64,000 nt of DNA from Botryllus schlosseri (taxonomy: Eukaryota), in assembly GCA_051294905.1 (NCBI GenBank), contig CM119371.1, positions 8,868,001 through 8,932,000 of the forward strand, written 5' to 3'. Under the pieces are notes generated by a model. That model did not search any database. It was given only the letters and a program-made list of their open reading frames with translations, and had not been told where the DNA came from. Shown here one piece after another: positions 12,941 through 48,782 of this stretch. The position numbers and the translations under genes are program-made. Each line of letters begins with the position of its first letter. The stretch's first letter is position 1.

Positions 12941-13122
12941 CATTTAATTTCCTGAAATTCGTGTTATTTACTATTTTTTATTCTTATCCTAAAAGATCTC
13001 CGTATGCTCTCTTCATCAGTTCCATATAGTACCATCATGCAGTATGCACCGTAGTAAATGCCGTCATTCTTATCAGATCATGTCGGTCAATGATTGACAT
13101 AATCACATACCCCATTTAAATT
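12941..13122 (-). repeat. LTR-like terminal direct repeat, 3' copy (segment A 12941-13091 followed by segment B)
   Basis: 12941-13091 matches 48630-48780 with 3 mismatches; contains AATAAA on the minus (coding) strand; lies ~240 bp beyond the env2 stop. Confidence 0.8.
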
Positions 13123-13357
13123 AACTTTCATGACCCGAGGGCAGTTCATTCAACTCTTATTTAGGCCTATTATAATTCATCAAGCACCTTAGGGCAGTTC
13201 AAATCCATAACTTTGATGTCATTTCGACATGTTGTGAGATACGATTTCGAAAGGTTGTTATTATAATCACGCAATATAATCGTGACTCGGAAGCGTATAA
13301 CAAAATAGTTTTTTTTTTTTATTAATTTTTTTGTTCTGTTTTATTAGTACCGTTTTA

Positions 13358-16300
13358 CTATGATACCATAACGCGTCCGCCCAATAGATTATCAGTTTCT
13401 TGTTCTACGACCTCCTTCTCTTGTAACACAGGTCTGGTATGCAACTTTCGCATGCTAATTCCGTGGTGGATGTTTCTATTGACAATTTTCCGCCTTGTAC
13501 TTGATTCTAACTTATTTCTTCTGCGATAATACTTCTTGCTAATGTATATCAAGGCTGCCACGGAAAAAAATAAGATAATGACGACCATCATTAATCTTTT
13601 ACTTTGGCCTTTTATTGGCCCTTGAATATTCCGTACATGAATGCCAGTCATTATGAAAGGTACTAGTTTTACCGAGTAGTTTTCTTCCATCTTTAATAAT
13701 TCATGTAGTTTTTCTGTTAAATTGAGCCTTATCAAAGTGTCTGTGGCATTCTTCGAATCGTACCCCCATATCTCAAGCGTGGAGACAGGGGCTTTAGCAG
13801 TTATCATTTGTGAATCGTTCCCTCCAAGAGTTGGGGGTAGACTTTTAATTGTATTCGGAATGCGAAGGGCCTTAGGGGTTTGTACCATGACCTCCTCTAT
13901 ACGGGAATCATTGAACCGTGTAATTACACGTGTCGTTGAAGGGTCGTCGATATTTTCACTGGACTCATTTATGGTGGTTTTGGTTCTATTGACCAACGGA
14001 TTCGGTTCCCTCGGTTCCGTCATATGCAATTCTCCACTCCTTCCGGCTTCTGGCAATGCTCTGGACATCGATGTACTTCCAGTGCCTTGCAAACCCCGAA
14101 TCACTTTCATCATTAGTATTGTGGCAGCGATACTTGGCGGTGTAGTTCCTGTTCTTTCGGTAGTAATCTCCGTCCCAGAAGAGGTCGTGCCATTTGGTAA
14201 AATTATCTTCGTCCCAATAGCAGCCGTGGTATTCGAGTGCATAGGTTTTATAATCATAACGGTCGGGTTACTCTCCTCCGTTGTACCCAAGGTCGGCCGA
14301 GTACTTAGAATTGTGGTTTCATAATCGTGGTCCCGAGATCGTGATGGATTCCTTATTACTTCAATTCTGTCTTCCAATGTCGAATTTGAGGTGTTTCTGG
14401 AGTAATAACTCAACATGGCTTGTAGAGGTACCTTTAGCGTGGAGGATATAACTGTTTCCGTTCCACTATTTATTAGGGATTCATCGCTATGTGATAATTC
14501 AGATTGGTTCTGTAGAGGGTGGCTTCTAATTGAATCCTTAGTTGTCGTAGAATTTGGGGTGGTCATAATTGTCGTAGAATTTGGGGTGGTCAGAATTGTC
14601 GTAGCGAATTCTGCATAGCTGGACATAGGACGTGTTGTTTGTTCCACCATTACCGTTTTCTCTCCTGAAGGGGTATTCTGGATCATCCTCCTGAGTTTTA
14701 AATTAGGTCTATTTGAAATTGTACTAATGTTCGCTGCATTCCCATACAGAGCGGGTCGTGTTGTTATAACTTCGGACCTCCATACGTCGGGAACAGGGAT
14801 CATGCTCCTTGAATCACTGTATTGTATGGGTTGTGTTGTTCTCACTCTTGAGGGAATAGTAGTACTATTATTCGTTATATTCCAGGGTTCTGTTGTTACC
14901 AAGAATAAATTGTTCCTTGATGACATCGAAAACTTTCCCTCCCCGTCTTTTTTCGAAAGGGTAGCAGTAACTGTTGTATAAGGAACGCCAGTCGATTTTT
15001 CCACAGAAGTGAGTATTGTCATGTTCGTCAAACGGGTTGTATGCGATGTGTTGTTATGATCTACCGGTCCTTCAGTAGGGGGAGAGGTGGGTTTGTTAGT
15101 AAATGGGTCCGGGTTTGTAGCAGAAATGTCCCCAGGCAGGGTGGGCGTCACATTAAAAAGGCGAACAGTAGTGTTAGACATGGACAATGTCCTATCCTTT
15201 CTGGTATCCACTTCAAACACGTTGGGTTGATAATCGGTCGTTATTCTAGCCTTTTCCGGAGGTGGTGAGGTTTGGATTATTTTACCAAGTGCCTCCGTTA
15301 TAGTTGTGTTGATGACGGTCAAATGCTCGTCCGTTGATGACCACAGAGGATTCGCCCTGCTCGTTTCATTTCCCACCACCAAAATCGTACTGGCGTGATC
15401 TGAAAAATTGCTAACACCTTGTTTAGTAAGTCTTCCCCTAATTATTGTCATAAGAGGAGGAGCTTGTGTGCTTTCCGACACATTTCCCGCCGTCGAGGCT
15501 GGGACTTCTATAGTGGTCAACACGTTATTGGGAGCTGCTGTAGTCGTGTTCACCAAACGTAAGCGAGGCCTTTTTTTGTAGGCGTATGGTGTGTAAATAA
15601 GGCTTCCATTCAGAAAGTATGCCTTGTAACACACGTCCGGAGCGAATAGGTTAGTTTGTCGGGATTTTGCTTCCAATAAACTCTGGGCAGTGGCCATTTG
15701 GCTGAACGCTCTGTTCAGCCTTACAGCGTCAGATCCTGAAATACCCTTCTGCTGTCGGTTAATTTTGTTGAGAATCATATTTTTTGCCCTTCTTGGTATT
15801 ATTTCGCGGCTCATAACCATCTTTAACCGAGACCTTATAATAGCTATTGGTCTGGTTAAATTTCTGATTATGTCGACAGCTCGTTTGCGGGCTTGTAGCC
15901 AATTCTGACGAAACCACCCTTCAAGACTTTGTCCATTCGCACCTGACATCGTGAGAAGGAATGCCTGTTCTCTTTTTCTTGCTAATCCAGGAATATGCGT
16001 AAGCGTAGTTCCGACAAATTCTCCTCCGTAGGTGTTGACAAAAATGGGATGATTCAATGATGGATCATACGTCACTAGATTCCCCATAATGAGTTTGGCA
16101 GCCACCCCGCTGAAAGGATTGGTGCACTCTGTTCGGTTTGCGACACGGCCCTGACAGTTCGGATCTAAAGCAGTCATCGACGGGGAGGTTATTTTTATAG
16201 GCATACTCCCTTTCTGACGTCTCTTCGGTCCATCCCGTAATCTGTTGTTGGCATAATATCCGCCCTCCAATGAAATGTTAGCACTCGCCTTAACCCAAAA

Positions 16301-17221
16301 TATTCGATTTGACATCACCTTATCGAAAACTCCTGTGGGCCATAAGTTTTCAGACGCTGCCAGTTGTTCACCATTGTTTATGGGGTTGTCCGTGTTTTCT
16401 CTCGTAGTAAATGTGTCAATAGTAATATCTTCTTCCTGAACAATAAGTCCAAAATCTACAATACCAATCACTGGGTTTTCACCAGTAAATCGACAAGTAT
16501 AACACGTCGGAGATTCTCCTTGAGTAGTTGAGCAGGCATGGAAGTTTCGCATTGTAATGATTAGTCTAAAAGAGACTGGATTCCAATCCCTCGTGCAGTC
16601 AGCTATTACCCCGCGATAGTCTTTGAGCAAACTTATCACGAGAAATTTATAAACAGTCATGATAGGTGTGTACTTATTCCCAGGATTTCCGCGAGGGAGG
16701 GTGAATTGGTTTTCAGCCCATTGCCAAACGAAGCGTGCATCATACTGTTCCGACCGATGGAATCGAATTCGCCTCCCCAGGTAGGAATAATTCAAGGGTG
16801 GTTTTATGTAGAGAATTCTCCTAAGACACGAACAAGTCTGTTCTAACTTCAAAGGATCATCCCAGTATTGACCCTGTGATCCCCTCGGGAGAAGGTTATT
16901 CCGCATTGTTTGTCCAATAGTTTGTATCTTGCCAAACTGGGCATCATATCCGACAATTTCTCCATCAGATTTATAGCGATGTATTTGTTCGGGGTTCGTG
17001 TTAGCCAATGTTATTTCTAAATTGAATAACTCTTGAAGTAGTGCCCTCGAGCTGTTAAACAAGCTCTCGTCATAACGGGTCCATGTCGAAGTGTTCAAGC
17101 TTTCAATAGGTAATATCTTCATGTCAATAAAAGGGACTCGGCCAGTAACATGAGAACGTCCTGACCACGCGGCCGACAGTAAAAGGACCATAACAACGAT
17201 GATGTGATCCAACTTCTTCAT
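13358..17221 (-). CDS. Envelope-like type I glycoprotein 2 (1287 aa): Env1-paralogous N-terminal domain, long S/T/N-rich mucin-like stalk, TM and basic tail
   Basis: Signal peptide MKKLDHIIVVMVLLLSAAWSG; Cys and motif colinearity with the 785-aa ORF; many N-x-S/T sites; TM LMMVVIILFFSVAALIYI followed by KKYYRRR. Confidence 0.8.
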   Translation of the reverse strand: MKKLDHIIVVMVLLLSAAWSGRSHVTGRVPFIDMKILPIESLNTSTWTRYDESLFNSSRALLQELFNLEITLANTNPEQIHRYKSDGEIVGYDAQFGKIQTIGQTMRNNLLPRGSQGQYWDDPLKLEQTCSCLRRILYIKPPLNYSYLGRRIRFHRSEQYDARFVWQWAENQFTLPRGNPGNKYTPIMTVYKFLVISLLKDYRGVIADCTRDWNPVSFRLIITMRNFHACSTTQGESPTCYTCRFTGENPVIGIVDFGLIVQEEDITIDTFTTRENTDNPINNGEQLAASENLWPTGVFDKVMSNRIFWVKASANISLEGGYYANNRLRDGPKRRQKGSMPIKITSPSMTALDPNCQGRVANRTECTNPFSGVAAKLIMGNLVTYDPSLNHPIFVNTYGGEFVGTTLTHIPGLARKREQAFLLTMSGANGQSLEGWFRQNWLQARKRAVDIIRNLTRPIAIIRSRLKMVMSREIIPRRAKNMILNKINRQQKGISGSDAVRLNRAFSQMATAQSLLEAKSRQTNLFAPDVCYKAYFLNGSLIYTPYAYKKRPRLRLVNTTTAAPNNVLTTIEVPASTAGNVSESTQAPPLMTIIRGRLTKQGVSNFSDHASTILVVGNETSRANPLWSSTDEHLTVINTTITEALGKIIQTSPPPEKARITTDYQPNVFEVDTRKDRTLSMSNTTVRLFNVTPTLPGDISATNPDPFTNKPTSPPTEGPVDHNNTSHTTRLTNMTILTSVEKSTGVPYTTVTATLSKKDGEGKFSMSSRNNLFLVTTEPWNITNNSTTIPSRVRTTQPIQYSDSRSMIPVPDVWRSEVITTRPALYGNAANISTISNRPNLKLRRMIQNTPSGEKTVMVEQTTRPMSSYAEFATTILTTPNSTTIMTTPNSTTTKDSIRSHPLQNQSELSHSDESLINSGTETVISSTLKVPLQAMLSYYSRNTSNSTLEDRIEVIRNPSRSRDHDYETTILSTRPTLGTTEESNPTVMIIKPMHSNTTAAIGTKIILPNGTTSSGTEITTERTGTTPPSIAATILMMKVIRGLQGTGSTSMSRALPEAGRSGELHMTEPREPNPLVNRTKTTINESSENIDDPSTTRVITRFNDSRIEEVMVQTPKALRIPNTIKSLPPTLGGNDSQMITAKAPVSTLEIWGYDSKNATDTLIRLNLTEKLHELLKMEENYSVKLVPFIMTGIHVRNIQGPIKGQSKRLMMVVIILFFSVAALIYISKKYYRRRNKLESSTRRKIVNRNIHHGISMRKLHTRPVLQEKEVVEQETDNLLGGRVMVS

Positions 17222-17343
17222 CGTGGTTCTTGTTATAAGTTTATAAATCTTAGTCGTATTCCTATACCTAAATGCAGTTGTTTATGTCATTAGTCTGTCT
17301 TTAGTCACTACTTGTCTTTTCTTATAAAGAATCTTTGTATTAC

Positions 17344-19701
17344 CTATCGCCGAATAGTCAGGGGTGCCATATAAGCCGTATATGTCGTCAACTCATTTCG
17401 GTTATTTCGACCTTGTATCTTATCATGTGTTCTCCTTTTGTTAGGGAAGACGACCGGGTAGAGTTTAATCATACAAATAAGTATTCCGATCACAACCACT
17501 ACAATTATAATCGGTGTGAGTATTCCCGTTAGACTCCCAAATATCGCACCCAAGCCAGAACCAAATAACCCGCTCACTCCGTCAATACCCTGGGAGAGTA
17601 TTTCCCCAGCTCCTTCCGCTACGCTCCGAATAATCGTTCCTGTGCCATTAGCGACGGTCTTAACGGCATCCCCGAAGTCATCAAAGAATTCTTCCCCTAT
17701 TACGCGATTCAAGTGGATAAAACTGATATTATCATACTCCATATTTGAAGTATTTACAAACACGCCGCTGTCCACATCTTCTTGCCAGCGTTGCAATTCA
17801 ATTTCAGCTTGGTAGTCGATGCTCTGTATTTCTCTTCGCGTGTTTTGTAATTCCAACGCCTGATTTTCGGAAACATTTGCATAGTCGCCTTTCAGCTCAA
17901 TCATTTTCTCCGCAATTTCGCGTAGGCTTAAAATCCCTGACTTAATTCGTACAGCGTACGCCTTGTTTCTATCAAATATAGGTTTCGCTGTTAGATTTTG
18001 TAACTCCTGCATAACCAATTGATTAATGCTCAACTCAGCCAATGTCATTTCTTGTACGGTTTGGATCGTGGATAGATAACTATCCACTTGTGCTAATATC
18101 ATGTTTCGATTGGTCCATATCATACTGGTGATAGTTTGGAGCCTTGCCTCGGTAGCTGCTTCCCTTCGCAGATTTGTCAGGATCAACTCGTTCAATTTCT
18201 GAGCCCGGGCAACCCCTATAAGGGAAAGATCGTTTAATCCGTCAGCTACCGTCTTCAAATCATTTTCTATTTGTGTAAATCGGGCGTTCAGTTGCGCAGT
18301 TAAGTCGTCCATATTTTTGTTGATCATGTGCTGTAGATTTGAAGTTACGGCCAGAGTTAAAATTGTCGAGAATGCTAATACGAATAATGAGAAAAACATT
18401 CTTTTTCGCCTTCCCGTCCCTCCTGGAAGTGTAGAATTCCCGTCCTCTAAACCTGTTTTGTGACCTCCCAGTACCACGAGAGGTTTTCCGGGGTATCTTC
18501 TTCGATTGGCCTGGGAATCGTAGATAATGTCGTCCCAATAGGACAGTTTCATGTGCAAGTCCCCAACAGGATATTCACAGGTTGCTTTATTTTCCCGTAT
18601 TCGTCTCACACACCGCTGATCGTCCTTCAATAACGAAGGGTATTGGCGGTATATCGGTAATATTCCCGAAATCTTGATAGGCTTCCTTCCATCCATATAA
18701 TCTAAGCCGTATTTATTCGGATAAGTGGGTCGAATCCAAATTATATTTTCCGGTAAAGTTGGTTTGTCACCCAATATAGCATTTCTCCACACAGGTGCTG
18801 ACGGGTGGTAATTGTGTACTCCAGGCACATATTCCATTTCAATGTCTAGCGACGTCTTTAAATTTCTAGTTGGGTCCTCTTCCTGTATAAGAATTTTGCT
18901 AGGATGGGGTTGATAAGCCACAACCAAACCGCGAAAAGTACAGGTCGTACATCGTAATATCTGGAGTAGACGAACACAATCCACCAGATCTGTAGAACTA
19001 TCGTTGTAGATATTTCTTTGTAACATCATTGCCTCGGTCCTTACCGTATAGGTGACACAATTTATTCTAATACTAGAATATGTGGCAAACATTTTCAACG
19101 CTTTTAATTTATACTTCATAATGGCTATCTGGAATAGGCCGCGAGGATTCCAGCCTCTAATCGTTTCGTCCGTATCGTTCCACCTCCATACCAACCGGTA
19201 ATTATTTCCAGTAGGTCTCACATATACATTTTCCGATTCCAGAGCTTTCAAGTTCAGATCAGGCGTAATATATGCCTTTGTTCGTCGACACAAGCAAGTC
19301 TTTTCGAACGCATTTATATCTTCCCAATAATGCCCAGTCGGATACATGTATTCTTGAAACGTGATCTTCTCGGCCTTCACATAACCAAACGTGGATGAGA
19401 AAAACAATCCAGGGTTACTAAAGTTATAAGTTGAATTCCTTATGTCCCAGCACGACGCTAGAGAAATGTGTTCCCAAGGCGATGATTTCAATTCGGTCCA
19501 ATCTGCGGGAAATTTCTTAGGCAGCCTTCCAAACTGAGCCTGGACTATCGTTCCAGCTCTGTCGTCATAGTATGGTATTGTGCTTGCGGTGGTAGTTATA
19601 TTACTTGCAGATATTGTCGATCCCGTCGTCCTCGGCAATAGCACACTAAGTGTATGAAGCAAGCCACACAAGTAATAATTAATAGTAGAAACGCTGACCA
19701 T
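17344..19701 (-). CDS. env: Envelope fusion glycoprotein-like protein 1 (785 aa)
   Basis: Signal peptide; furin site RRKR (18400-18411) immediately followed by hydrophobic MFFSLFVLAFSTILTLAV; heptad-repeat region; Gly-rich amphipathic membrane-proximal segment; TM IIIVVVVIGILICMI; Kozak context GCACCATGG. Confidence 0.85.
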   Translation of the reverse strand: MVSVSTINYYLCGLLHTLSVLLPRTTGSTISASNITTTASTIPYYDDRAGTIVQAQFGRLPKKFPADWTELKSSPWEHISLASCWDIRNSTYNFSNPGLFFSSTFGYVKAEKITFQEYMYPTGHYWEDINAFEKTCLCRRTKAYITPDLNLKALESENVYVRPTGNNYRLVWRWNDTDETIRGWNPRGLFQIAIMKYKLKALKMFATYSSIRINCVTYTVRTEAMMLQRNIYNDSSTDLVDCVRLLQILRCTTCTFRGLVVAYQPHPSKILIQEEDPTRNLKTSLDIEMEYVPGVHNYHPSAPVWRNAILGDKPTLPENIIWIRPTYPNKYGLDYMDGRKPIKISGILPIYRQYPSLLKDDQRCVRRIRENKATCEYPVGDLHMKLSYWDDIIYDSQANRRRYPGKPLVVLGGHKTGLEDGNSTLPGGTGRRKRMFFSLFVLAFSTILTLAVTSNLQHMINKNMDDLTAQLNARFTQIENDLKTVADGLNDLSLIGVARAQKLNELILTNLRREAATEARLQTITSMIWTNRNMILAQVDSYLSTIQTVQEMTLAELSINQLVMQELQNLTAKPIFDRNKAYAVRIKSGILSLREIAEKMIELKGDYANVSENQALELQNTRREIQSIDYQAEIELQRWQEDVDSGVFVNTSNMEYDNISFIHLNRVIGEEFFDDFGDAVKTVANGTGTIIRSVAEGAGEILSQGIDGVSGLFGSGLGAIFGSLTGILTPIIIVVVVIGILICMIKLYPVVFPNKRRTHDKIQGRNNRNELTTYTAYMAPLTIRR

Positions 19702-19857
19702 GGTGCCGGCACAGGTACGTCGGGAAATTTCATTAATTATAATTTTTTCAAATAGCTGTAAAGTTATCTGTCTGTAAAAGCATAAATAGGGTTAGGCGAA
19801 TTGCGTTCTGTGTTCGAAGCCGTAATATTGTCTCAGAGAGGAGGGATAGAGTATGTT

Positions 19858-20862
19858 TTAGGCGACAGTGGTACCACATACATTGAAACGAGGGTCCTCC
19901 CTTATGGACCTTAACAATGACTCAAATATGTCGTTTCTGTCATGCTGACGTTTGTATAACCACTCATCTACGTACTCTTGTAACAAGTGTCTGGCCAGTC
20001 CACGCGAGCGCCTCATGTGGTGCTTCAGACTAGACCAAGCCGCTTCCTGATCGTTCGTATGCGTCCCATCAGGCGCTCGAAACATAGCGCTATGGTCGAC
20101 TGATCTGTGTTTATAATCTTGCCCCCACTCCTCTATGCCATTATAAGAGGGGTAACAATCCGTTAATATGGTAGATCCCCTGGCTATATTATTTACAAGT
20201 ATACGCTTCATTACCGCTGCCGTCCTGTCAGATGTTATTTCTGCAAACATTTCTCCTGTTGCTCGGTCAAGTCCACCCACAACCCAAACTGCCTTCCGGG
20301 CTGAAGGATCATTGGTCGTGTCGCGACGTCGCTTCGCCAGATGCGACTCGTCCACAACTATGATACTTTGGTAGCCGCCTAGTTTTCGTTTATGTCGTCG
20401 TAAATCCGCAGCACACACTCGTCTCAAGCATCCAGACCAAAACACAATAGATCGGAGGCTAATTTCTGATTCGTGGGAGATGTGATTTTGCGGGCTGTCG
20501 TGGGCCCAGAAATATGTCATTATAAGTAATTCAGGTAGCCCAACCTTGCTATTACTAAATATAGATCCTTTCCGAATAGAGGAGGTTGTCCTGCACTCAT
20601 TTTGTTGGCAGCGATATCTCCATCCATCATCGCTGGCTCCTGTTCGCTCTTCTACCATTGTGGATCTGCATTTTCGACAGGTCATTTGCCGAGACAGTAA
20701 TCCTTGGCTTCTCATGAACATAATGCAATCGCGGGTATTCAGTAAGACTCCAGATTGGGCCAGACGTAGTACATTATGGGGTACTTCTTGAGCGTCTGTA
20801 AGGGTAAAAATAAAATAGGTACAGATATATTCTTGGTTGGTTTGCACCTCTTGTGTATTCAT
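19858..20862 (-). CDS. IS1595/ISXO2-like (Merlin-type) DDE transposase, copy 1 (334 aa)
   Basis: N-terminal CxxC..DGWRYRC..C Zn ribbon, SIRKGSIFS, VVDESH, VWVVGGLDR, STILTDCYPSY, VDHS..F..PDGTHTNDQEAAWS, YVDEWLYK. Confidence 0.9.
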   Translation of the reverse strand: MNTQEVQTNQEYICTYFIFTLTDAQEVPHNVLRLAQSGVLLNTRDCIMFMRSQGLLSRQMTCRKCRSTMVEERTGASDDGWRYRCQQNECRTTSSIRKGSIFSNSKVGLPELLIMTYFWAHDSPQNHISHESEISLRSIVFWSGCLRRVCAADLRRHKRKLGGYQSIIVVDESHLAKRRRDTTNDPSARKAVWVVGGLDRATGEMFAEITSDRTAAVMKRILVNNIARGSTILTDCYPSYNGIEEWGQDYKHRSVDHSAMFRAPDGTHTNDQEAAWSSLKHHMRRSRGLARHLLQEYVDEWLYKRQHDRNDIFESLLRSIREDPRFNVCGTTVA

Positions 20863-20906
20863 GTCTCTTTCTTGTAACTTAAGATAACACTGTGAAATTT
20901 TACTGA

Positions 20907-23900
20907 TTATTGTTTTTTGTCCGCAAACTGTATTACTGCGGAAGGGATGGGTCCTCTACACAAAATTACATCTGGGTTGGGTGACTGCCACATAATCATA
21001 CCCAATTCCCTGATTTTGCTGGCGTCAATTTGTAAAGCCACCTTTCGTCCCCGAGATTTCCCACTTCGGGTTAGGCTAAAGTGAATGTATTTCCGGGGCA
21101 TTCTTTCAAGCTCAGTCTGCATAATCCGTTGAGCGCCATTCCGCGTAGTCATGTGGTACAGCTTGTCGTTACCAGTATATTCCTCATAAGCGGGAGGCTC
21201 ACCCACGGTATGTCCGTGTGCAGCCGCGAGCCCCTCATCTTGAAGAACAGCCCTGGAATTGTTTTGCATGATTGACCTTAGGAAGTGACTTTGGAACTCT
21301 TTCCCCAGTTTTCTCCTTAGGATTTCTTGCAGATGTCCCCAGGGATGAAATCCACCATGGCTGTGGTCACATACCTCGTGCCTACAGTGCCGCATTAAAA
21401 GTCTCTGTATGAATTCATGTCTGGCAGAGTCCAATTCGTTTGGTGCGTCCGCACTCTTCGTCGTAGGTAAAGTGGTCCATACACAAGGGTCGTCTTCCCC
21501 TGCGGCCATTTCCATCCAATAAGAACGAGAAAGCCCATCGGATGTGAATACCTGTAGCGTACTTAAATGAATCACTTTATCTATTTGGAATCCTGATAGA
21601 TGGTTGAGCCATCGCTGGATTAGTGGTTTTGGGCTCGGATTCGCAGCTTTTTCTGTCATCCTTTTCAATAGTCCGAATACCCCTGTATTGTCTGTGATAA
21701 TGGTAAATGGTATTGCGCGCAACATAGATTGCCATTTTTCCACCGAATCTTTTAGAGCTTTGAGCTCTTTTGTACACGGATCATATGCCTTTGCCGTTTG
21801 GGTAGTCCATTTTTGGCTATAAAAAGCAATCGGGTATATCTTCGTAAAGGGCGGTTTTTCTCCTTCTTCTGTCTGAAATATTACGGAACCGAATCCTACA
21901 TCAGAAGCATCGGTTTCGATATACAGCGGGAGTTCTGGGTCCAGATGATATAGTACCCTTGCGTCGTCCAGTAAGGCTTGGGCCACCTTATAATCATGCA
22001 ACAACTCATCGTTCCATAGTAAGGGCGTTACTCTTCCTTGTGTGGCCGGTACTTTCCCCGTTAACGCGTCGAACTTTGCTAGCTTCAGGCTCAATTCAGG
22101 TATGTGTTCTGAGATGTATCTCAATGCCCCGATCCAACCCCGTAGCTCATAAATGTTATGAGGTGGCGCAAGTTCTTTCAGGGCTCTAACTCGTTCGGGT
22201 TGGACCTCAATTTCTTTGCCTGTTAAGGTTGCGCCCAGCAGATTCACTCGCCGCTTGCCAATGAAACACTTATTGATGCTCACTGTCAATTTCATCTTAG
22301 CCAATTGTTCAAACACCATTCTGAGCAGCACCAGGTGATCCTCAATGGTCTTTGTGCTCAGGAAGATGTCATCAATGTAGGCCTCCATAGGCGTCACAGT
22401 GGACTCATCAGTCCTCCCACATTCTCGCATGAAGCGTTGATAATTCTCAGTGATGGGTTTAACCACACATTCCTGCATATTTGAAGTCCAAAGGGCTACT
22501 GCGGTCCGAAGACCCATTGGCATCTTTCGCCAGCGTATATGCCTGCCCTTTACGGCAATGCCTACGTATTGTTTTGATCTTTCCGTCATTTCCATGTGAA
22601 AATAGGCCTTCTTCAAATCCAATAGGGATAGTACCTCACGACCTTGAGCAAGCTGCTTCACGTCAGGTACTAATGGAGGGGGTACCTCTATGGATTTGAT
22701 GGCTGCATTAAGGGGTTGGAGATTCTGTACAACCCTCCATGCCTGTTTCCACCCGCCTTCTTGCTTCTGTCTTTCGTTCATTTTTTGAGGTACTACAAAT
22801 ATGGCCAGTTTCCATTCAGCAAATCCTTGTTCAATGACTTCGAGATCTAAAAAATTATCCACAGCCTCTTTTAAGGCTTTTGCCTGTTCTTCGCCCTTTA
22901 GATTATAAGGCCCTGACACAAAAGGTTTGGTTGAAGGGTCCTTCAATTCGATGTCACATTTGTATTTCATGGCTTGTGGGGCTTTGAGGTGTCCTCGTAG
23001 ATCTTCAAGTTCCGTAGCGTAAGGTTGATATACCTTCCTCCATTCTGCCTCAGGTACGATAGTGTTATCTGGGCTGGTAAGATCCGGTGGCTTATAGGGT
23101 GATTTCGCCAGTTCTACAGCTTGTTTACACAATCTTTCTAATTCGTCTCTAACGTCTGTCTTGGTCCCTTTACACAGTTCATACGTAGTTATCGGACCGC
23201 GAATTGGCCTGGTTGGGCCTTGACGTATTTCCGGTACCGATGGAGAGGGGGCGAGGTCTCCTTTGGTCAGTGGGGCTTCCACACTCGACTTGTTCTGCCT
23301 CTGAAATAGGCGCGTGCCCGCACCTATTTTCACGCCGACGACTCCCTTTTCCCTTGTCGCCGGGGGCCCTTTTTCTGGTAGGGTTTGCATATTTCCTCCA
23401 GACTCTTCGTCATCCACCCTGTTCTCTTTCCCAGAGGAGATGGCGACAGCTGCATTTGAAATAGTTTTCTCGGTTGGTGGCACGACGAATGCGACCATCG
23501 GGTCGTGGACAATATGTCGGCCGTTTTTATCAGGATCCTTCCATACGCCCGTGTCCTGATTATTGCTAGCGGGAATTCTTCGCTCAGCATGATTGGATTT
23601 GGGGGGGACACTACCCCCCATATTGAGATTAGCGTGACCGGACGTCCTCCCTTGTGCGCTAAATCTCTCCGAGAAAGAGGGATTGCCGAAATCCCGAATA
23701 ACGTCAGCGGGGCTTCCACACTCGACGTTGTAGAATGTCGCAGCTTCCATCGCTCCGTCACCAGAAGCAACGTTGCAAGTGCTACTTCTGTTTCCGGTTC
23801 CTTCATCGCCAATTAACGCGGCAAACGTCAATTCATTATTAACTGCAGTAGGGTCTTTAAATTCCATTTCTATAGATGGAAGTTGCTGAACTTGGTCAAT

Positions 23901-27295: not shown

Positions 27296-27301
27296 AATTA
27301 T

Positions 27302-36030: not shown

Positions 36031-36131
36031 CAGGGGTGTCAAACATACGGCCCGCGGGATCATTTAGAACAAATTGAAAATATATTACATTCGAAACCGG
36101 CCCGCGACGCGAGTTGAGTTTGACATCCCTG
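36031..36131. mobile_element. Tiny hAT-type MITE
   Basis: CAGGGGTGTCAAAC ... GTTTGACATCCCTG with GGCCCGCG subterminal motifs. Confidence 0.65.
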
Positions 36132-40519: not shown

Positions 40520-40684
40520 AATTGAGCAGTCAACACAATGACCCGGACCCGGACCCGAGTCACAATACCATGACTCAGACTCGATCCTGTGGGAACCGAA
40601 AAATGACTCGACCCAACCCGAGCCAAAAATACAAAAGTGAGATTGACTTGTGACTCGGAGCCTTGTGACTTGGTTACAACCCCA
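40520..40684 (-). mobile_element. Partial inverted copy of the 6629-family MITE
   Basis: GTGACTTGGTTACAACCC terminus and GAGTCACAATACCATGACTCAGACTCGA match 6629-6820 in reverse. Confidence 0.65.
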
Positions 40685-43600
40685 ATAAAAAGGCAGGCCT
40701 TGTTACTTCTTTTTACAGAAAATCACCACCTATCTACCGGGATTACACATGTCAAAGCAAGGCGACTTCAACAGTCAAGTATAGACTGTCGCGTGAAAAT
40801 AAGTGGTCTTGGTTTATGTATCAAGTAAACCGAAATATTGATGGCAGGTGGACGTTCGAGCATTTTATTGTGCAGGGTGCACCAATTGTTCAAATAGTTC
40901 TGGCCATCAAGATTCAAGAGGCTCGTAACAGGTTGCAGGCCAAGTTCTTATTTGTCTAGATGCCACTAAAGGCCGCCATACTGCAAAATGGCCCTTATCG
41001 ACCATTTCAAACACTGTCGCAAATACCAAGATCCAGTATAAATTCATCAAGACATTGTACATAATGATATAGAAATCAATCTTTCCAATGATTGGAAATT
41101 GGGAAACATTGTTATCACCGGTGTGTAAGCTACTTTATACTAGCTACATTTATTGTAGTGAAATTTAGGGCGAAATTCCAGTTCTCAATAATTGAAAAAA
41201 AGAAAATATTAAAAAGAAAACTTGCAAGTTCTAGCGCGTCGTTGCTGGGCCAAAATGGAGAAGCCGGAATAAAAATATATTATAACAGTTTGCCTTTGCT
41301 TTCATATCAAGGCTGCCCAAGAGTCGCCTTTTAAGACTGGTGCCCGGACGACAATACCGCAGTCGCGTCAAGCCATCACCCAAATTGAATTGAATTTTAG
41401 AGGTGAGAATGATCATACTCAAAATTTATTAGATCAATTCACTACTATGGCGAGTTTGTGGTGAAACACCAGCGTCAGTGAGGCCGCTGCTATACAAATC
41501 ATCAATCCCTACAGGCAACAACATGGCGGATATTTGGTCTAGCCGCGCAGTATCACAACTAAGTCCCCATAGTATTAAAGCAGCCCACAGGCATTCTAAT
41601 ATGGGGGAATGTATCATAGTCCGCAACTAATGAGTGTACATTTTATTTCCAGTTACAAGGTGATGTATCCTCATCGTGAGAAGGCATTACATGAGTAAGT
41701 CACACTTAGATGTATCCGAAATGTAGAACACTAGACTAACTCATGAATGGTTAGTCATAAACTTATGTAAAAAAATGTGCCCCACTTAGGTTACCAACTT
41801 GGTGACTATCAAGCTGCTTTTCTGTTAAAATGTGCTTTGGATTATTGCTTGTTCTAAAACCAAGCGATATTACAGCGAAATGTGCAGCAGTATCTGTCTT
41901 ACAGTGATTAAATTCCTTTTAGTTCATAGATGAACATATCTTACACCCGCATACTTCTCATATCAATCATTAAATTACATAGGGCATTGTAGTAATAGAA
42001 GGAAGTAATTTGTCTCTTCTAACTATGGTATTTGCTATAGTGAACGCCGCAACCAACAGACTCTGGTCTGCCAAAGTCCCACAAAAACTTTAACAGACCA
42101 CGCCCATCCCTCGCAGCGATCCAGCGGTACCCTTAAACAAATCTATGAGAACCCATCTGTCCCTTTAGCTGTTTTATCCTCGTCTTTGATGATCAACAAC
42201 ATGCTGATGTGTTACCCAATCAAAGCATTGCTCACTGATTTGAAGAGAAATAACTCCAGACAATAACACTTACAAAAAAAATTTTACAAATAGTCCAATG
42301 TTCCTATCAGATATGTTTCAGTCTGATCAATCTAGGGTTGTTGAAAATAAACTTGGGTGCCAGTGCTGTTCAAAACTGTCAAGTTCATCCTAACCAAGAG
42401 TTATACACTGAAATTCCCAAGTATCAAATAGTTACATTTCATCTTTCAGGTTGGTGAAGGCAAACATCAATACTCGGCTCGCTAGGACAATGCTATGATA
42501 CCCATAGTATGCGCGGCAAGTCATGTCTGAATCAGGTATGGGAGTCAGAACATGAGAGTTGGAATATAGACAACCTCACCGTGACCTAGTGCCACTATAC
42601 AATAGTCATGGGTTGTTTACTGTTTTAGGGTCAATAGACATCACCCAACTCAGGTCAAGTTGTTGGAATTAAGTCAATACCATTTACTCCAACTCACTGC
42701 TTGTTTTGACTGAATTGGGCGAAAACCAAAACATGAAGTGATGACTCTAGCCAACTGGGGTAATTCTAACATTTTGTTATATAAAACTTATTTTGATATT
42801 TCAATCACCAGTGTAAAACAACAAGGTTAAGAATTCATGCTTTCCCTAAATGGTCTCCTTCTCTTCTTTCTAGGCAGCTAAATATCTGCTATTTAGTGAA
42901 CCCACCCTGACTGAATATTATGTCACAAAATTTCCTGTACGAATATCATATAGGCCAACTTTGCAGCTCTGAACCAATGAGTTCCTACTATATTTCCTAA
43001 CTGTTGACAATTATACCTTCATATTTTTCAGTTTAGACCGTCCTATTAAACAAATCCTGCTCAAGCTTACTGTCCTGTTCAGATCCAACCATGAAGAATT
43101 CAAAAGGCCTATTCCCAGAAATTCTGATGTCAATATCCAATTTGGCAAGACCCAGGTGCTGCTGCTTACAACTTCAAGTCATTCTCATCTTATTTATGGG
43201 TAAGTAATTTTACAACATCCATTTCTACCTTATTTATTCAGTAGTCGACCCAAGTAACCCTGTACTGTGCATGATTTATTTTTATAGACCTCACGAACTG
43301 TCCATCAATCTATACATCCATTCCCAATTAATAGACCCACTTGCCAGCTCACTCAGTATGAACTAGAAATCAAACACACCTTTTAAAATTCACAGCTCAT
43401 CTATACTCCATTTGTAGCTAAATTAGCGAATCTGGAGCTGTACCGAAGTCAACTATTCCTGCTTATTATGACAGGTTCACATTTATAAGTTGTGAATTGG
43501 GAAATGAATTACTATTCTCCTGGCGGGTTACACTAGACAACACTGAAATTTTAAAGCCGAGAAACTAAAAGAAAATAATTTATTTTCTTTATCTTACTGG

Positions 43601-44082
43601 CAGTTTGTAGCTCAAAATTTACAATCAAGGTAGGTAGAATTCTATGTTTTACTATCCCGAACTCATGATTCGCCGTAACAAGTACCCTATTGAGCCCTGA
43701 GTTTGGACCTTCCTTCATTTATTCTACAGGTTTTACACACAGGAAAGTTGTCTCTCATCGTACTACGGCACACAGTGAGTTAGAGACCAAATTCAGATGC
43801 GACTCCCTTACAAAAGACCTTCATCTATTTAGAATCGGAACAGCAATGACTACGAGTATACTCAGGATCCACCACCTGGAATTGGATTTGGAGTGGGCAA
43901 TAAAGTCTTTCAACGCGAACCAGTGGACTAGAGGACTTTACTCATAGGATTTCATCTATTGGTCCTGTTGCGTGTTAAAGATGCTAACCAAAGCTGCATG
44001 AGGCGGTCTCAATAAGACTTTAAAGGGTACATAACCAGTCATCAAAATGGCCCGGACCCGCGTCAGAACTATGCCTCGTAAT

Positions 44083-44598
44083 TAGGGCTGGGCACAATGA
44101 TTCGAGTACTCGAATCTGAATCGAGCAATAATTTTAATGATTCGAGTCGAGTAGCAAAATACGATTTTTTCGAGTACTGAAATTATACGCTCCTCGCCAC
44201 TGAAAGTTAATTTATCAACGATAATTATAGTTTCGATATCAATTTTCACTGTTGAAGCCTTGAAACCTATATTGGCCGCATCGTAGCATACGAAACATAT
44301 AGTACAAAGCTACGAACGTTACATGAAATAACATATTTCCGAAAGCATGATCATCCGCAACATTATCACCAAGTGCCATGAAATCGATATGGACGAAAAT
44401 ATGCCAAAGCAACCTTAAGGTGATGGATATCAGGAATTATATTCTTTGTGGTCGCATAAAAGGTACATATTTGAACTTTGACATAATACATTGTGTTGTG
44501 ACGTCATAATGAGTGATACTAGATTACTCGACTCGACTCGAAGCATTTTACGTGATTCAGAATCGAATCACCCAGGTACTCGATCTTGCCCAGCCCCA
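44083..44598. mobile_element. hAT-type MITE, same family as 10807-11321
   Basis: TIR TAGGGCTGGGCA / TGCCCAGCCCCA; TSD CTCGTAAT / CCCGTAAT. Confidence 0.8.
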
Positions 44599-45594
44599 CC
44601 CGTAATCCGTTCGTTGACTGTAGCGCGACTCGAAGGTGGTACTACAACAGTTCGAATAGAGTCAAAGTTTCGCGAAATCTAAAGTACTTCAGTGAGGCAA
44701 AGTGTGACGTTCCGTTGGCTGGTAAGGACCGTGTTCAACTGATCCTAACTATGACTGTGGACGTATTCACGGGTTAGTTCACTTGGAGCCTGAGCGCGGG
44801 CGGTCCATTCGAAATCCTTTATAATTCTCACCAGCACTGTTTCACATTTCGGTAGGCCACAACTAAGAACAAGGTCTTAAGGAGTTCAGTATTAACTTGT
44901 TTCACGCGTCAGGTTGTCCGCTTATCGAATAGGCCCAAAACTACAAATTGTATTCATGATTAGTGATTTACTAAGCTAATTTCCAATAAGCTATAGCGTT
45001 AGCAATTTTATATCAGAGGTTTGCAGCTATCCCCAATTTTAGGAATGTTTCAAGTCCCTGAAGTACTTGGCCCTGTCTCAGCAGAATTTTTAAATTGACT
45101 AGGGATTCTACCCCCACACACTGCGTTAACATATTAATTCACGCTAATATAAACCCCGTTTCGTTGGCCGGTTGGCTCTTTTATTCCTCGACTCTGTTGG
45201 GTATTTATTCACCCATTTCCTTAATCACGGGGCTAATGTCTCAAGATCATCTAGCGATTGGTGTGTCCATGGAAATTCAGTCGTTACTAATTACGATCCC
45301 ACTATTAAACTCTTCTCAACCGACAGACATGTGGGAACGTAACCTGACTGTAACTATTAACCCGTCAAGCCTCCACCGTCAGTACCAGCCTCGTATTGTT
45401 CTTCTTTTAAGAGTATACAATCTTACACACCGATTACTCGAGAATAGGCACATTAGTAAGTCGCCAAACAAAATCTACGCCATACACACGTATAAATTGT
45501 GGTAAAAACACGTTCGTCGGTATTGACGCAGTCCACTATAGATATCACACCAAGAGTTCTGACAGTTGAAACATAGTTTCAATTAAGCGTCTCA

Positions 45595-46701
45595 TTAATT
45601 ACCAAACCAATCAATGGTACTGGTACAGGGTTCAGGCATTTCGCTCTTTATAGCTTCAAGACTCGGCAATGTTACCACGGTACAAGTTGATTGAACAGGT
45701 GGCAGTGGTTTAAAGTCGCGATACCAATTTTTACAGATGTTTTTCAAGAAACTCATTACGTCTGGTACGTTTCCAAGACGCCACACTTCCGAAAATACAA
45801 GCTCTCCGCGTATGGTATGAATCAGAATCTCGTCAGAATTACTTGAATGACATCGCAACGAGTATTGTTGTAGGGCGATGTCTATACGAGTTGGTTCGTT
45901 GGCAGCTAGTGCTATCCCACAGCTGACCAGTATAGGCATTATTAAATAAGCTACTGCACGAGAAACTTGCAAAGAGACGCTAGAACCACCAAGTTCCATA
46001 GAATCATAGGCGCCACGGCTAGACGAAATTGACCGTCCGATGTCATTCAACAAATTGCCCACAGAATCGGGGTAATTAGGAGCCAAATCGTCCCCACTCA
46101 TCAGACCAATATAGACGTCCAAAGCCTCGCGAATAACGCACCGAATAGTCATTTCATCTTTAAAAAATGCGTGCGGCACATTTCCAGACCTCAGGTCTCG
46201 GTCCGACAGATAATTAACAATTAAGTCATCATTCAAGTCGCCATATAGATTATAACGCCTCTGAAACATTGTAACACGCGACTGAAATTCAATCGATATT
46301 AAAGCAGAAATCATAGCTTGTTGGTCAGCCAAGATATTAGTACACTTAGGACAGTCTTCTGGGGCGGGATTTAATCCATCTGCCCGACGACGAAATTCCA
46401 TGATATTCTGCCCTGTAAAAGTGCTACCAATATTGAATACATACATATTTTTCAAATCGAGCATGAGTTTGGAGGCCGCTCCAGAGGCAATCTGTGATAG
46501 GATTAGATCGTCTGTCAATAGAGCGAATTTTTCGTCAGTAGATCGCGATCCCATGTCAAATGTCGCTATACATTCGGCACAGTTGAAGGGCAGGTTTGTG
46601 CCCAAGTTCCAATGATGATGATTGTCTTTCAGAATGGCCGTCAGCGATTGGCGAGCGCCGAGATGAACGTAGACCTGCTGCAGAATGCTAGCTCCTTCCA
46701 T
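45595..46701 (-). CDS. Hypothetical protein (~368 aa from ATG 46701) with two CxxC motifs
   Basis: Long intronless ORF, protein-like composition, CAEC and CPKC; ATG preceded by acceptor-like TATACTTCAG. Confidence 0.65.
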   Translation of the reverse strand: MEGASILQQVYVHLGARQSLTAILKDNHHHWNLGTNLPFNCAECIATFDMGSRSTDEKFALLTDDLILSQIASGAASKLMLDLKNMYVFNIGSTFTGQNIMEFRRRADGLNPAPEDCPKCTNILADQQAMISALISIEFQSRVTMFQRRYNLYGDLNDDLIVNYLSDRDLRSGNVPHAFFKDEMTIRCVIREALDVYIGLMSGDDLAPNYPDSVGNLLNDIGRSISSSRGAYDSMELGGSSVSLQVSRAVAYLIMPILVSCGIALAANEPTRIDIALQQYSLRCHSSNSDEILIHTIRGELVFSEVWRLGNVPDVMSFLKNICKNWYRDFKPLPPVQSTCTVVTLPSLEAIKSEMPEPCTSTIDWFGN

Positions 46702-47527
46702 TGTTCTGAAGTATAAGTATATTTCGTTCACAATCGCTCGGCCCTTGCCAAGGATGTGGCCAAGCGAATATGCGCCTTTAATTAAGATCGAATATCGTGT
46801 ATTACTATCAATATTGTAGTAACGTGGCTGACGGTCTGTTTAATATACGAGGCGTGAGTTCTCAAGCAGCCATGTATTCAGTGACGACCAAGCACCGAAG
46901 CACCTACGATGTCGTCACACCCTAATGGCGCCATAGAGACTACTACTACAAATGTGTACTGCACCGATGATACAATTAGTTAGGTATTTCTCAAGGAAGG
47001 TAGTCACTGCACAAGACCTCCCCCAATGAACAGTTCAATTAATAACCAGCACAAGTTTCTGGATCAATTTTTAACACCCGGTTTCATAATGACTCTCCAA
47101 GGGTGAAGACATAATTTAGATAATGGATCTTCAACACGCAAGTATCGCATATCTTCTAGCTATATGTAACCCAAGTCGCATCCCTGCGTGGTACTAAAGT
47201 TCAATGCAGTAGCTCACATACCAATGTCTTCTTGAGACGGGAGAGCTTGGCTTCTTCAATTCTTCTTAAACCCTTCTTCGTTTCTTCTCGAATTGTTGTC
47301 TGCTACTGACTCTCCAGACCAAGTAAGCCGAATTATATAGCTTTCTGTCTCGTAGGAAAAAAAGGGAAAAAAAGAAAAGAATACCCTCTATCTGTTACCT
47401 CTCCGCGCACGGATGACGTAAACAATTTCTAAACCAACAGGTTTTCGGCCCTTGGAAACTTCAAGAACGCCCCAAATTAGGTATTGAGGCATAATTTTCA
47501 TTTTTTCTTCTGGGCGAAAAATGCCTT

Positions 47528-47611
47528 GTCACCTAATTCGTATTCCTTTCTCTTCTATAAACCCATCCGGGTCACCTTATTCGTATTCCTTTCTCTTCTA
47601 TAAACCCATCC
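47528..47611. repeat. Two-copy ~43-bp tandem repeat
   Basis: GTCACCT(A/T)ATTCGTATTCCTTTCTCTTCTATAAACCCATCC twice. Confidence 0.8.
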
Positions 47612-48580
47612 CCGGATATTTCTGGAATCTCACATCACAGGAAAAAAATGGGGCAAAGCGTGCCACAAGGATTGCACATGAAGGAAAAAAATGCGGGCGG
47701 TGCAAAAACCTCGTTTAAGGTTCGCCGCGCACCTTTCTATTCCGCTTAGGCTACTTAAGTAATTTAGAACTTACGGCAGAAGGGCCAGCGTTAAGTCATA
47801 ATTCGCAATGTTTCTAAGCGTCGATTTTAAGAAGTCGGCACCTATACGTCAGTTTTAACTTGATAGCCAAAATAGCTGGACGGAAGTGACGGGTTTAGTC
47901 GGTGCCCAATCGCAAGTTCGAATATTAACGGGTTTTACAATAAAATTCTACTGACTCACATATTCAACCTATATGACTGTATTGATGGGAACTAGCTTAA
48001 TTTTATATATACCTTCAGTCATCCTACCTTAGTTACCTTAGTTTCCGTCATAAAGTACGCCCAACTTGTACGTGCAGAATAGAGTCGTCAGTCTGCTTCA
48101 CCGAAATTTCCGGTATTTTTTCCATTAGCTTTGACGCAAAGATCAATTGACATTATGGGTCGTTTTATATGTCGGATGCCAGCAATTTTGTCCGTAATTC
48201 GAATCGTTCCACCTAAATCATACAATCTTGCCGCGGGCGGCCCAACATATTGTTGCATCGTAGCGAACATGCTGCAACGCCAATTGGCCACCAGCTAAAA
48301 TCAAACCGAGATTGACTGTTCCATACCCACCCGAGTGTTGGAGGTTCACCCAGGCTCTTTCCAGTCATTCGAGCCGATCACACAACATTAGGAATCCACA
48401 CCGATTTAGCCACGGCCACGGATCCTTCATGTTGATATTTATTACTTATCCATTTTCTGTAATATTACAGCCAATTATAGATGGAGACATCGCCCGCATA
48501 TCGCGATGACACCCGCATCGCGATGTATACGGAATGGTTTTACTACTTTTATCTTGGCGATCTTGCGCACTTCCTGAAGG

Positions 48581-48782
48581 AATGATTGACATAATCACAT
48601 CGGTCAATGATTGACATAATCACATATCCCATTTAAATTCCTGAAATTCGTGTTATTTATTATTTTTTATTCTTATCCTAAAAGATCTCCGTGTGCTCTC
48701 TTCATCAGTTCCATATAGTACCATCATGCAGTATGCACCGTAGTAAATGCCGTCATTCTTATCAGATCATGTCGGTCAATCA
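48581..48782 (-). repeat. LTR-like terminal direct repeat, 5' copy (segment B twice, then segment A 48630-48780)
   Basis: Matches 12941-13091 (3 mismatches); preceded by AATGATTGACATAATCACAT twice; 48608-48782 reads TGATTGAC...GTCAATCA. Confidence 0.8.

Follow-up and report, generated by a model that had tools for sequence, protein, structure and literature searches.

How does a retrovirus-like set of genes enter a chromosome when its pol gene encodes no integrase? The question is raised by a locus of Botryllus schlosseri that lies in a 64,000-nt stretch of contig CM119371.1 (NCBI GenBank assembly GCA_051294905.1, positions 8,868,001 to 8,932,000 of the forward strand), hereafter called the window and numbered from its first letter. 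A first-pass annotation, made from the letters of the window, had described five long open reading frames (ORFs) on the minus strand, encoding Gag, a Pol with protease (PR), reverse transcriptase (RT), RNase H (RH) and Tpt1-like domains, a Merlin-type transposase and two envelopes, together with further co-oriented ORFs upstream, and had proposed a single retroelement of about 36 kb. All of these ORFs were found again (Table 1), the five main ones being intact and arranged head to tail, with gaps of 122, 156 and 44 bp and with base 24302 common to gag and pol. They do belong to one unit of the proposed size, bounded by inverted ends and an 8-bp target-site duplication, and this unit holds two transposase paralogues and not one. 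Its insertion signature is that of a Merlin DNA transposon, so that the term retroelement suits its retroviral cargo but does not name a proven insertion chemistry. The locus probably represents a composite mobile element, in which a retrovirus-like gene set lies inside the ends of the Merlin superfamily and is needed by the element, which would multiply through a cycle of RNA and reverse transcription.

Ends and target-site duplications

The mobile unit spans window positions 12708-48907 on the minus strand, i.e., 36,200 bp, as given by its located ends and by the matching octamers outside both of them. On the sense strand, the element starts with GGTTCAAATG... and ends with ...GAGTTCC. Its start at 48907 (GGTTCAAATGAAAATACCGCCCG) is directly preceded by CAACATTA, and its 3' side, ...GGGCGTTTGGTTCATGAGTTCC, finishes at 12708 and is followed by CAACATTA again. 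Both octamers were confirmed by script and the duplication is perfect over 8 bp; by simple arithmetic, an 8-bp match at two pre-specified positions is expected by chance about once in 65,000. The inverted ends themselves are imperfect (GGTTC... / ...GTTCC), with 14 of 24 positions matching, a value that random 24-mers of the window reach or exceed at P of about 0.001.

The same boundaries can be read in other copies of the family. Four other genomic loci have their 5'-terminal region in common with the window copy; all of them begin GGTTCAAGTG...GCCCGTGACG and their upstream flanks are unrelated. In copies with a second gene order, referred to below as the long form, homology stops 279 nt past the pol stop codon, at ...GCGGGCATATACTGCACTAGTTCC, with unrelated sequence beyond, and three copies become homologous about 270 nt ahead of the tnpA start, at GGTACTTGTGAAATAAGTGCCCGG. 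The long-form ends, GGTACTTGTG... and ...CACTAGTTCC, are imperfect, matching at 17 of 24 positions by our own count. A kindred terminus, ...TAGTGCACTAGTTCC, is found about 500 nt past env2 in the C12 and C3 copies, whose order is of the window type. Two copies with both flanks read carry the 8-bp duplications CAAGTTGT and AACCCCAG, each of them perfect, and five further long-form copies carry GAAAAATT, GAAAAATA, GTATCTTT, CAGCATTT and GAAATGTC, again without a mismatch. Taken with the window copy, all eight elements read at both ends thus have GG... / ...CC inverted ends and perfect 8-bp duplications, the sequences of which differ; the seven other than the window copy are whole units of about 34-47 kb from end to end, each with one pair of ends and one duplication.

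According to a survey of the superfamily, Merlin elements are defined by terminal inverted repeats (TIRs) with a terminal 5'-GG, by duplications of 8 or 9 bp and by a transposase related to that of IS1016, of the IS1595 family (PMC8101967). All three features are present here, i.e., GG-terminated TIRs, 8-bp duplications and an IS1595-type transposase with its DDE residues. Chromosomal insertion of whole units is of the Merlin type, GG-terminated inverted ends being joined to the target with an 8-bp stagger, and it is presumably performed by the IS1595-type DDE transposase(s) of the element itself, in place of a retroviral rve integrase. Judged by its perfect duplications, the family is recently active.

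The two transposases, tnpA and tnpB, score 51.2 and 69.7 bits, respectively, against the PF12762 model (cut-off of 27). Residues D171, D235 and E273 as well as four cysteines are invariant in all six sequences aligned (TnpA, TnpB and four relatives). Of the genome matches to tnpA, 51 reach E<=1e-100, and others, with 37-41% identity, form a second class that corresponds to tnpB; a gene of this second class is present in most long copies.

Outside of these genes, the first-pass annotation had taken a direct repeat on either side of the locus as a flank. The repeat is real (154 nt, 97% identical between its copies at 12941-13094 and 48630-48783), but it is neither the terminus nor an LTR: its 5' copy is separated from the 5' end of the element by 124 nt, and its 3' copy from the 3' end by 233 nt. 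It was dropped as a boundary because in four other copies homology continues to the GG start, 124 nt further out. It was also considered as a captured end-to-end junction, and it does contain one end-like motif (15 of 24 positions), but its left half matches the ends poorly. The repeat may serve the binding of the transposase or strand transfer, or be the relic of a junction. A common block of about 45 nt (…GTGATTATGTCAATCATTGACCGA) follows or precedes it.

Gag, pol and the Tpt1-like domain

A gag gene followed by a pol gene with protease, RT and RNase H, as is typical of long terminal repeat (LTR) retroelements, is present in the element. In Pol, Pfam models recognise the RT (RVT_1, 8.3e-18) and the RNase H (RT_RNaseH, 3.3e-18, both RT-linked RNase H models scoring about 3e-18). 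Among solved structures, the best match is 8r0s, an 'Enzymatic polyprotein' (3e-20) that we take to be a caulimovirus Pol, followed by foamy-virus Pol (1e-12) and Ty3 RT (3e-11). The pol gene lies in the -1 frame relative to gag, and its frame opens 43-121 nt ahead of the gag stop codon. The junction, GGGGG.GCTGAT.GATCCGGT.A, and the frame relation are kept in nine of the 12 loci examined, and an ATG is found at this place in the window copy alone. As judged from these sequences, the arrangement is the layout of retroviral frameshifting, with a putative slip site.

The C-terminus of Pol matches the PTS_2-RNA/Tpt1 family of RNA 2'-phosphotransferases (PF01885, 3.2e-9, 37.5 bits for a cut-off of 26) and solved Tpt1 chains at 9e-9. 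This Tpt1-like domain is kept in the ten genomic copies and five outside relatives that were aligned, and the 15 sequences have in common the blocks HCRHE.C, xRA, GHT/GHS, YH.T and RM.R.(F/Y)(I/V)H. Pol terminates in this domain and is then directly followed by the 3' end of the element or by tnpA, depending on the gene order.

Envelope-like glycoproteins

The Env1 protein has the sequence features of a class I fusion protein: a predicted signal peptide, a cleavage-like site with a hydrophobic peptide, long helices and a transmembrane segment. Its basic site, GRRKR (RRKKR in relatives), is followed by a hydrophobic stretch and is kept in all four orthologues, in which eight cysteines are also conserved. 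Helices at residues 430-513 and beyond are found in both AlphaFold2 models. Language-model neighbours of Env1 are the clusters of coronavirus S2, influenza HA and paramyxovirus F (0.87-0.89), to be taken as a lead only.

Env2, which lacks the cleavage site, has an env1-like N-terminal domain (about 24% identity); this is followed by a long S/T/P-rich stretch that is predicted to be heavily N-glycosylated. No Pfam family matches Env2, which, from its sequence, looks like an attachment protein. In the genome, 57 scored candidates gave 99 rows of matches to env1, and the N-terminal domain of env2 gave 66; env2-like ORFs follow env1 at dozens of loci.

Copy number, gene orders and selection

When the 495-Mb assembly was searched in six frames with Pol, 41 loci were scored out of 1,673 first-look candidates, a number that is hence a lower bound. 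The copies are found on at least 16 large contigs. In 38 of the 41 loci no stop codon interrupts the match, and all matches reach residue 1124 or beyond (of 1131), so that all include the Tpt1 part. The 41 listed loci are 66-73% identical to the window pol (next best 71%), which makes the window copy the sole full member of its own lineage among the matches listed.

A co-oriented transposase of the same class lies on the same strand within 80 kb of pol at 38 of the 41 loci; of the three loci without a listed tnpA, one borders the edge of its contig and another is truncated on its 5' side. The order gag-pol-tnpA-env1-env2, for which the first-pass annotation had suggested a check of recurrence, is found at seven of the 41 loci, the window included, with the tnpA start about 3.5 kb past that of pol. 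The commonest order, however, is a circular permutation of it, found at 31 of the 41: in this long form, tnpA-env1-env2 ... o172-like-tnpB ... gag-pol, the co-oriented tnpA lies 9.8-70 kb upstream of pol (median about 35 kb). The tally combines pol and tnpA coordinates and was adjusted by eye for C5:27044234, whose own tnpA is 36 kb upstream. Each gene order can be obtained from the other by rotating a single circular map. In both, all genes of the element are on one strand, and env1 and env2 follow tnpA at dozens of loci.

Selection on each gene was estimated from the C12 and C3 copies, which are 94-96% alike over a length of at least 27 kb. Between them, the ratio of non-synonymous to synonymous substitution rates (dN/dS) amounts to 0.10 in env1 and in the part of tnpA compared, 0.14 in pol, 0.19 in gag and 0.47 in env2. 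For a second pair, C1a and C16a, it is 0.15 in pol and 0.12 in the C-terminal portion of gag. Most of the differences between copies hence accumulated under purifying selection on all modules, and such joint selection is as expected for lineages that replicate with these proteins.

In one lineage, Env1 is 68-69% and Env2 47-48% identical to the window proteins at C12:24397035-24402071, C16:1874740-1879981, C8:10399980-10405212, C3:31173697-31178929 and C1:7141995-7147238, and the transposase of these same five loci is only 38-40% identical to TnpA, which suggests module exchange between lineages. At C5:10286152-10303640, the single tnpA of a long-form element is apparently followed downstream by two gag-pol blocks, spaced 14 kb apart, in what looks like an internal duplication. 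Finally, the 505-nt 3' region that follows env2 in the C12 copy, which holds an A run of about 40 nt and an internal duplication of about 130 nt, is found at no fewer than 40 scored loci (183 candidates), most of them far from the listed pol copies; these loci may be coding-poor derivatives that share the 3' end and moved in trans.

Search for LTRs and an integrase

Neither LTRs nor an rve domain in Pol, both of which belong to the definition of an LTR retroelement, was found. No long terminal direct repeat is present in the window beyond the subterminal 154 nt, nor in the other copies compared with themselves. The 279-nt 3' region of the long form was found after pol at many loci and never about 35 kb upstream of itself (best 40 of 142 candidates), and a comparison of the 5' regions of copies with their 3' regions gave no match. 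Similarly, rve is absent from Pfam scans that covered 82 of the 112 stop-to-stop frames of at least 55 aa between gag and the 5' end, 13 other frames and tnpB, 16 frames lying outside the scan. None of the observations that the first-pass annotation had named as contrary to its own proposal was thus made, be it copies devoid of the modules (38 of 41 loci have the transposase), a normal integrase or modules with ends of their own (all eight elements read at both ends are single units).

Relatives and phylogeny

A word-indexed search of 5.8 billion proteins returned a single closer relative of the RT-Tpt1 part, P0001 (35% identity), the rest being gypsy-type Pols that carry rve (20-32%). The full HMMER scan added P0079 (47%), P0080, P0081, P0084, P0085 and P0106; PF01885 follows RT-RNase H in five of these six (P0079, P0081, P0085 and P0106 among them) and rve is found in none. 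Pols of the RT-RH-Tpt1 type hence occur in other public assemblies. The protease region also matches an annotated protein of the ascidian Styela clava (XP_039272285.1), which suggests a tunicate setting. Outside relatives were found for two other genes, two for env1 (54-56% identity) and one for tnpA (88%); the 88% tnpA relative and the 56% env1 relative each come from a contig listed as 7067 bp. The metagenomic contig that encodes P0001 (L040, 13,906 bp) carries gag, then a pol with PR-RT-RH and neither Tpt1 nor integrase, then an ORF of 1338 aa whose C-terminal part resembles the fusion half of Env1; no transposase or LTR was found in this 13,906-bp piece.

A FastTree phylogeny was built from 102 RT-RNase H segments (of 111 candidates, nine being dropped for short overlap) and rooted at its midpoint; labelled references for retroviruses, Bel/Pao, caulimoviruses and hepadnaviruses are not part of it. 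The eight genomic copies group with five outside relatives in a single clade, which has an SH-like support of 97. An rve-bearing Pol is sister to it (96), followed by a clade that includes an 'opus'-type Pol from a spider. On the RT-RNase H sequences, the family thus adjoins rve-bearing Pols of the Ty3/gypsy type.

Accessory ORFs and repeats in and around the element

The accessory ORFs of the window copy lie upstream of gag (Table 1). Matches to o172 are free of stop codons at 34 of 35 other loci, and in other copies with a tnpB-class gene the o172-like gene lies about 65-140 nt upstream of it. Searches on the identity of o172 gave only a sub-threshold Pfam match (PWP3A-B_C) and nothing with a language model, and no Pfam family matched o368.

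Table 1. Features of the element and of its immediate flanks, in window coordinates.
Feature	Position	Strand	Remarks
Whole element	12708..48907	- (sense strand = minus)	Family-conserved terminal motifs and identical 8-bp flank on both sides
Target-site duplication, 3' side, CAACATTA on minus strand	12700..12707	.	Identical to 48908-48915
3' terminal inverted repeat, ...GGGCGTTTGGTTCATGAGTTCC	12708..12731	-	Resembles conserved 3' ends ...CACTAGTTCC of other lineages
3' subterminal copy of 154-nt repeat; internal end-like motif GGAACTGATGAAGAG	12941..13094	-	
env2, 1287-aa type I membrane glycoprotein	13358..17221	-	N-terminal domain paralogous to env1; C-terminal transmembrane segment
env1, 785-aa fusion-type glycoprotein	17344..19701	-	Signal peptide, RRKR|FFF cleavage-like site, hydrophobic peptide, long helices, C-terminal transmembrane segment (predicted)
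tnpA, IS1595/Merlin-type DDE transposase, 334 aa, N-terminal Cys4 zinc motif	19858..20862	-	PF12762 (DDE_Tnp_IS1595, ISXO2-like) 1.9e-13
pol, 1131 aa: aspartic protease (LADTGS), RT (YIDD), RNase H, C-terminal Tpt1/KptA-like domain, no integrase	20907..24302	-	
gag, 997 aa, one CX2CX4HX4C knuckle	24302..27295	-	zf-CCHC 9e-4, just below Pfam cut-off
ORF of 166 aa, doubtful gene	28444..28944	-	Open in window; no match in other copies compared; no Pfam family
tnpB, second IS1595/Merlin-type DDE transposase, 40% identical to tnpA	30024..30959	-	PF12762 3.5e-19
o170, small ORF directly upstream of tnpB	31148..31660	-	32% identical to o172, distant paralogue
Nested high-copy repeat, about 1.2 kb, later insertion	33844..35088	.	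Ten genomic copies among matches listed, 89-95% identity
Nested high-copy repeat, about 1.05 kb, later insertion	36202..37254	.	29 genomic copies among matches listed, 93-95% identity
o172, conserved accessory ORF, 172 aa	38024..38542	-	35 other loci, 54-69% identity over residues 3-174
o368, accessory ORF (frame open 45598-46839)	45595..46701	-	Homologues at 26-34% in four other family elements
5' subterminal copy of 154-nt repeat	48630..48783	-	
5' terminal inverted repeat, GGTTCAAATGAAAATACCGCCCG...	48884..48907	-	GG start common to four other genomic copies, flanks unrelated
Target-site duplication, 5' side, CAACATTA on minus strand	48908..48915	.	Identical to 12700-12707

Later insertions of small elements, also suspected at the outset, are indeed present in the window copy as two nested high-copy repeats, which were found with a 14-kb query (24,655 first-look candidates). 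Another repeat family has inverted copies (81-93% identical) at 10809-11320, outside the element, and at 44084-44596, inside it, and short repeats related to it, with many AGTCAAGTC units, are found at 33445-33672, 35447-35672 and 38963-39334. Just outside the element, at 49012-51789 and beyond, is a young hAT transposon on the plus strand, whose 605-aa ORF has a Spin-doc zinc finger, a DUF4371 and a hAT dimerisation domain; its terminal 990 bp or so are found at more than 20 loci among the matches listed (98-99% identity). Fragments of this terminal region form a tandem array at C11:11531499-11564081, with at least eight units and a period of about 4.4-4.7 kb. Elsewhere, a 195-bp tandem array (about seven units, 92-97% identity) lies just upstream of the insertion of the copy at C1:7.86 Mb.

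Proposed replication of the element and alternative explanations

A composite element of this kind would still need its retroviral genes, since all modules evolve together under purifying selection; from this joint selection, the single coding strand and the frameshift layout, we infer a phase of RNA, reverse transcription and particle formation. In such a cycle, a genome-length transcript of the single coding strand would be made and packaged by Gag, before being copied to DNA by the RT, and the envelope proteins could possibly carry the element from cell to cell or from animal to animal. The cycle would further pass through a circular or longer-than-unit intermediate (a DNA circle, a concatemer or a circular RNA) in which both ends abut, because a linear transcript without LTRs cannot regenerate both inverted ends and because the gene orders are permuted. 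The transposase would then cut the abutted ends, doing the job of the missing integrase, and the second gene order would arise if the end pair moved to a different position on this circle. As for the Tpt1-like domain, it might act on the RNA or DNA intermediate, either by clearing a 2'-phosphate left by RNA ligation or by modifying a 5'-phosphate end, which is a guess.

A bolder version of this scheme, which we put forward tentatively and regard as possible at best, is that the locus is the integrated form of virus-like agents of marine invertebrates, enveloped and reverse-transcribing, which make up an order so far unrecognised. These agents would have a circular, pararetrovirus-like intermediate, a Merlin transposase that replaces both integrase and LTRs, and a Tpt1 domain that services a 2'- or 5'-phosphate end arising from circularisation or priming; their lineages would show circularly permuted orders because the transposase cuts the abutted ends of a circle. 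If this were true, their genomes of 36-40 kb would be the largest reverse-transcribed genomes known.

Several observations weigh against the proposed composite element and its cycle. A search with a single motif for an initiator-tRNA primer-binding site gave no match, and no tRNA gene was found that would explain priming. No known ribozyme or other Rfam family reaches its gathering score in the window, the two matches at the ends being at chance level. An AATAAA-like signal precedes the 3' end by about 90-100 nt in several lineages, so that polyadenylation might leave an RNA without the 3' inverted end. No transcript was seen in four bulk RNA runs of the same species label (6-13% sampled), in which depth is about zero over every ORF and the only bins covered are A/T-rich stretches with partly fitting reads; the animals of these runs may not carry the window copy. 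The Tpt1-like chemistry may also differ from that of Tpt1: in all 15 aligned sequences, the arginine aligned to the IRARYGHS ('IRAxQGHS') block is replaced by alanine or another residue. The catalytic set of Tpt1 is presumably Arg-His-Arg-Arg, and the catalytic arginine would be either that of IRARYGHS or that of the conserved upstream xRA. Lastly, the AlphaFold2 models of Env1 are poor, with a predicted local distance difference test (pLDDT) score of 36.2 from the single sequence and 39.8 from a five-row alignment.

Part of these observations is what one would expect of a giant Merlin DNA transposon that has captured a retrovirus-like block and moves as DNA only, its gag, pol and env cargo being recently acquired or kept for some other benefit and its RT playing no role in spread. 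Ends and duplications purely of the DNA-transposon type, the lack of LTRs and of a detected primer site, a possible poly(A) signal inside the 3' end and the absence of visible RNA all agree with this explanation, as does the 505-nt 3' region, whose 40 or more loci, many of them away from a listed pol, may mark coding-poor derivatives moved in trans. Passenger genes, however, are expected to decay, whereas gag, pol and env1 have dN/dS values of 0.10-0.19, as low as that of the transposase, and at 38 of the 41 pol loci the frame stays open across RT, RNase H and Tpt1. The single coding strand, the conserved -1 gag-pol junction and the persistence of the same gene set across diverged lineages and in other assemblies also argue against DNA-only movement, which we consider rather unlikely, although it is the rival that survives best.

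Far less probable is a chance nest, in which an ordinary Merlin element and unrelated env genes would lie inside or beside an integrase-less gypsy-like element, the 36 kb not being one unit. Unrelated repeats are nested in the window copy, a young hAT adjoins it, and its lineage has no second full copy among the pol matches listed; but the same modules are co-oriented at 38 of 41 pol loci, none of them has ends of its own and a low dN/dS is common to them. The nest is refuted by the ends and duplications, which are shared by whole units, seven other elements of 34-47 kb each having a single end pair and one perfect 8-bp duplication. An origin of the copies by segmental duplication of a single ancient locus, or through an error of assembly, and not by transposition, is scarcely credible despite the long similarity of the C12 and C3 copies, given that homology stops exactly at the conserved end motifs with unrelated flanks at every locus read, that each insertion has its own 8-bp duplication and that the copies are spread over at least 16 large contigs.

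Comparison with known systems and significance

The composite element combines traits of several known systems without coinciding with any of them. Merlin elements are usually a few kb long. The present one shares with them a DDE_Tnp_IS1595 transposase with intact DDE and N-terminal zinc motif, 5'-GG TIRs and 8-bp duplications (PMC8101967), but it is 34-47 kb in length and has two transposase paralogues, one of which is paired with a small conserved ORF, gag, a pol with RT and two env-like genes; the Merlin survey does not mention the term 'reverse transcriptase' (PMC8101967). The likeness to Ty3/gypsy elements and their env-bearing forms (Metaviridae, insect errantiviruses) lies in a CCHC gag, a PR-RT-RNase H pol in the -1 frame and, in the window order, env genes downstream. 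The element differs from them in that it has neither LTRs nor rve, in its inverted ends and its duplication of 8 and not 4-6 bp, in the Tpt1-like C-terminus of Pol, in its two env genes and in a length at least three times the usual one.

Teratorn, the fusion of piggyBac and an alloherpesvirus in medaka, resembles the present element in its association of a complete virus-like gene set with a cut-and-paste DDE transposase in a giant unit, which has the inverted ends of the transposon as well as internal end-like copies, as two reviews describe it (PMC10175614, PMC6431247). Teratorn is, however, made of a DNA virus and piggyBac, whereas the present element is reverse-transcribing and Merlin-type, and Merlin is mentioned in neither review (PMC10175614, PMC6431247). 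Pararetroviruses (Caulimoviridae, Hepadnaviridae) have, like this element, a pol without integrase and genes on one strand, and a circular genome such as theirs would explain the permuted orders. In contrast to them, the element has a -1 gag-pol layout, class-I-like envelopes, a length of 36-40 kb and its own transposase and inverted ends; an initiator-tRNA primer site was not found in it with the one motif used, and it is known from integrated genes alone. Finally, rve is replaced by another enzyme in DIRS/Ngaro elements, which use a tyrosine recombinase, and in Penelope elements, which use a GIY-YIG nuclease. The replacing enzyme is here an IS1595/Merlin DDE transposase, with inverted ends of its own and an 8-bp duplication.

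To our knowledge, every recognised class of retroelements is defined by the way it enters the chromosome, be it rve with LTRs, a tyrosine recombinase, or a GIY-YIG or AP endonuclease with target priming. In a search of full texts, with few subscription journals among them, no retroelement that carries a Merlin/IS1595 transposase or a Tpt1 domain came to light. As far as these texts go, a gene set of a reverse-transcribing, enveloped-virus-like kind that is integrated in the manner of a Merlin transposon is hence new. With the ends, the duplication and the enzyme family of Merlin, a full retrovirus-like gene set crosses the divide between class I and class II elements, and forms a reverse-transcribing counterpart to the herpesvirus-piggyBac fusion Teratorn. 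The family also adds an RNA-repair-type domain, Tpt1, to the repertoire of Pol, and raises the upper size limit for elements that seemingly depend on reverse transcription. Since dozens of its copies are open and recently inserted, with perfect duplications, whether a DDE transposase can serve a retrovirus is directly testable in this family. The family also has a bearing on the way in which retroviruses obtained their integration machinery and can exchange it.

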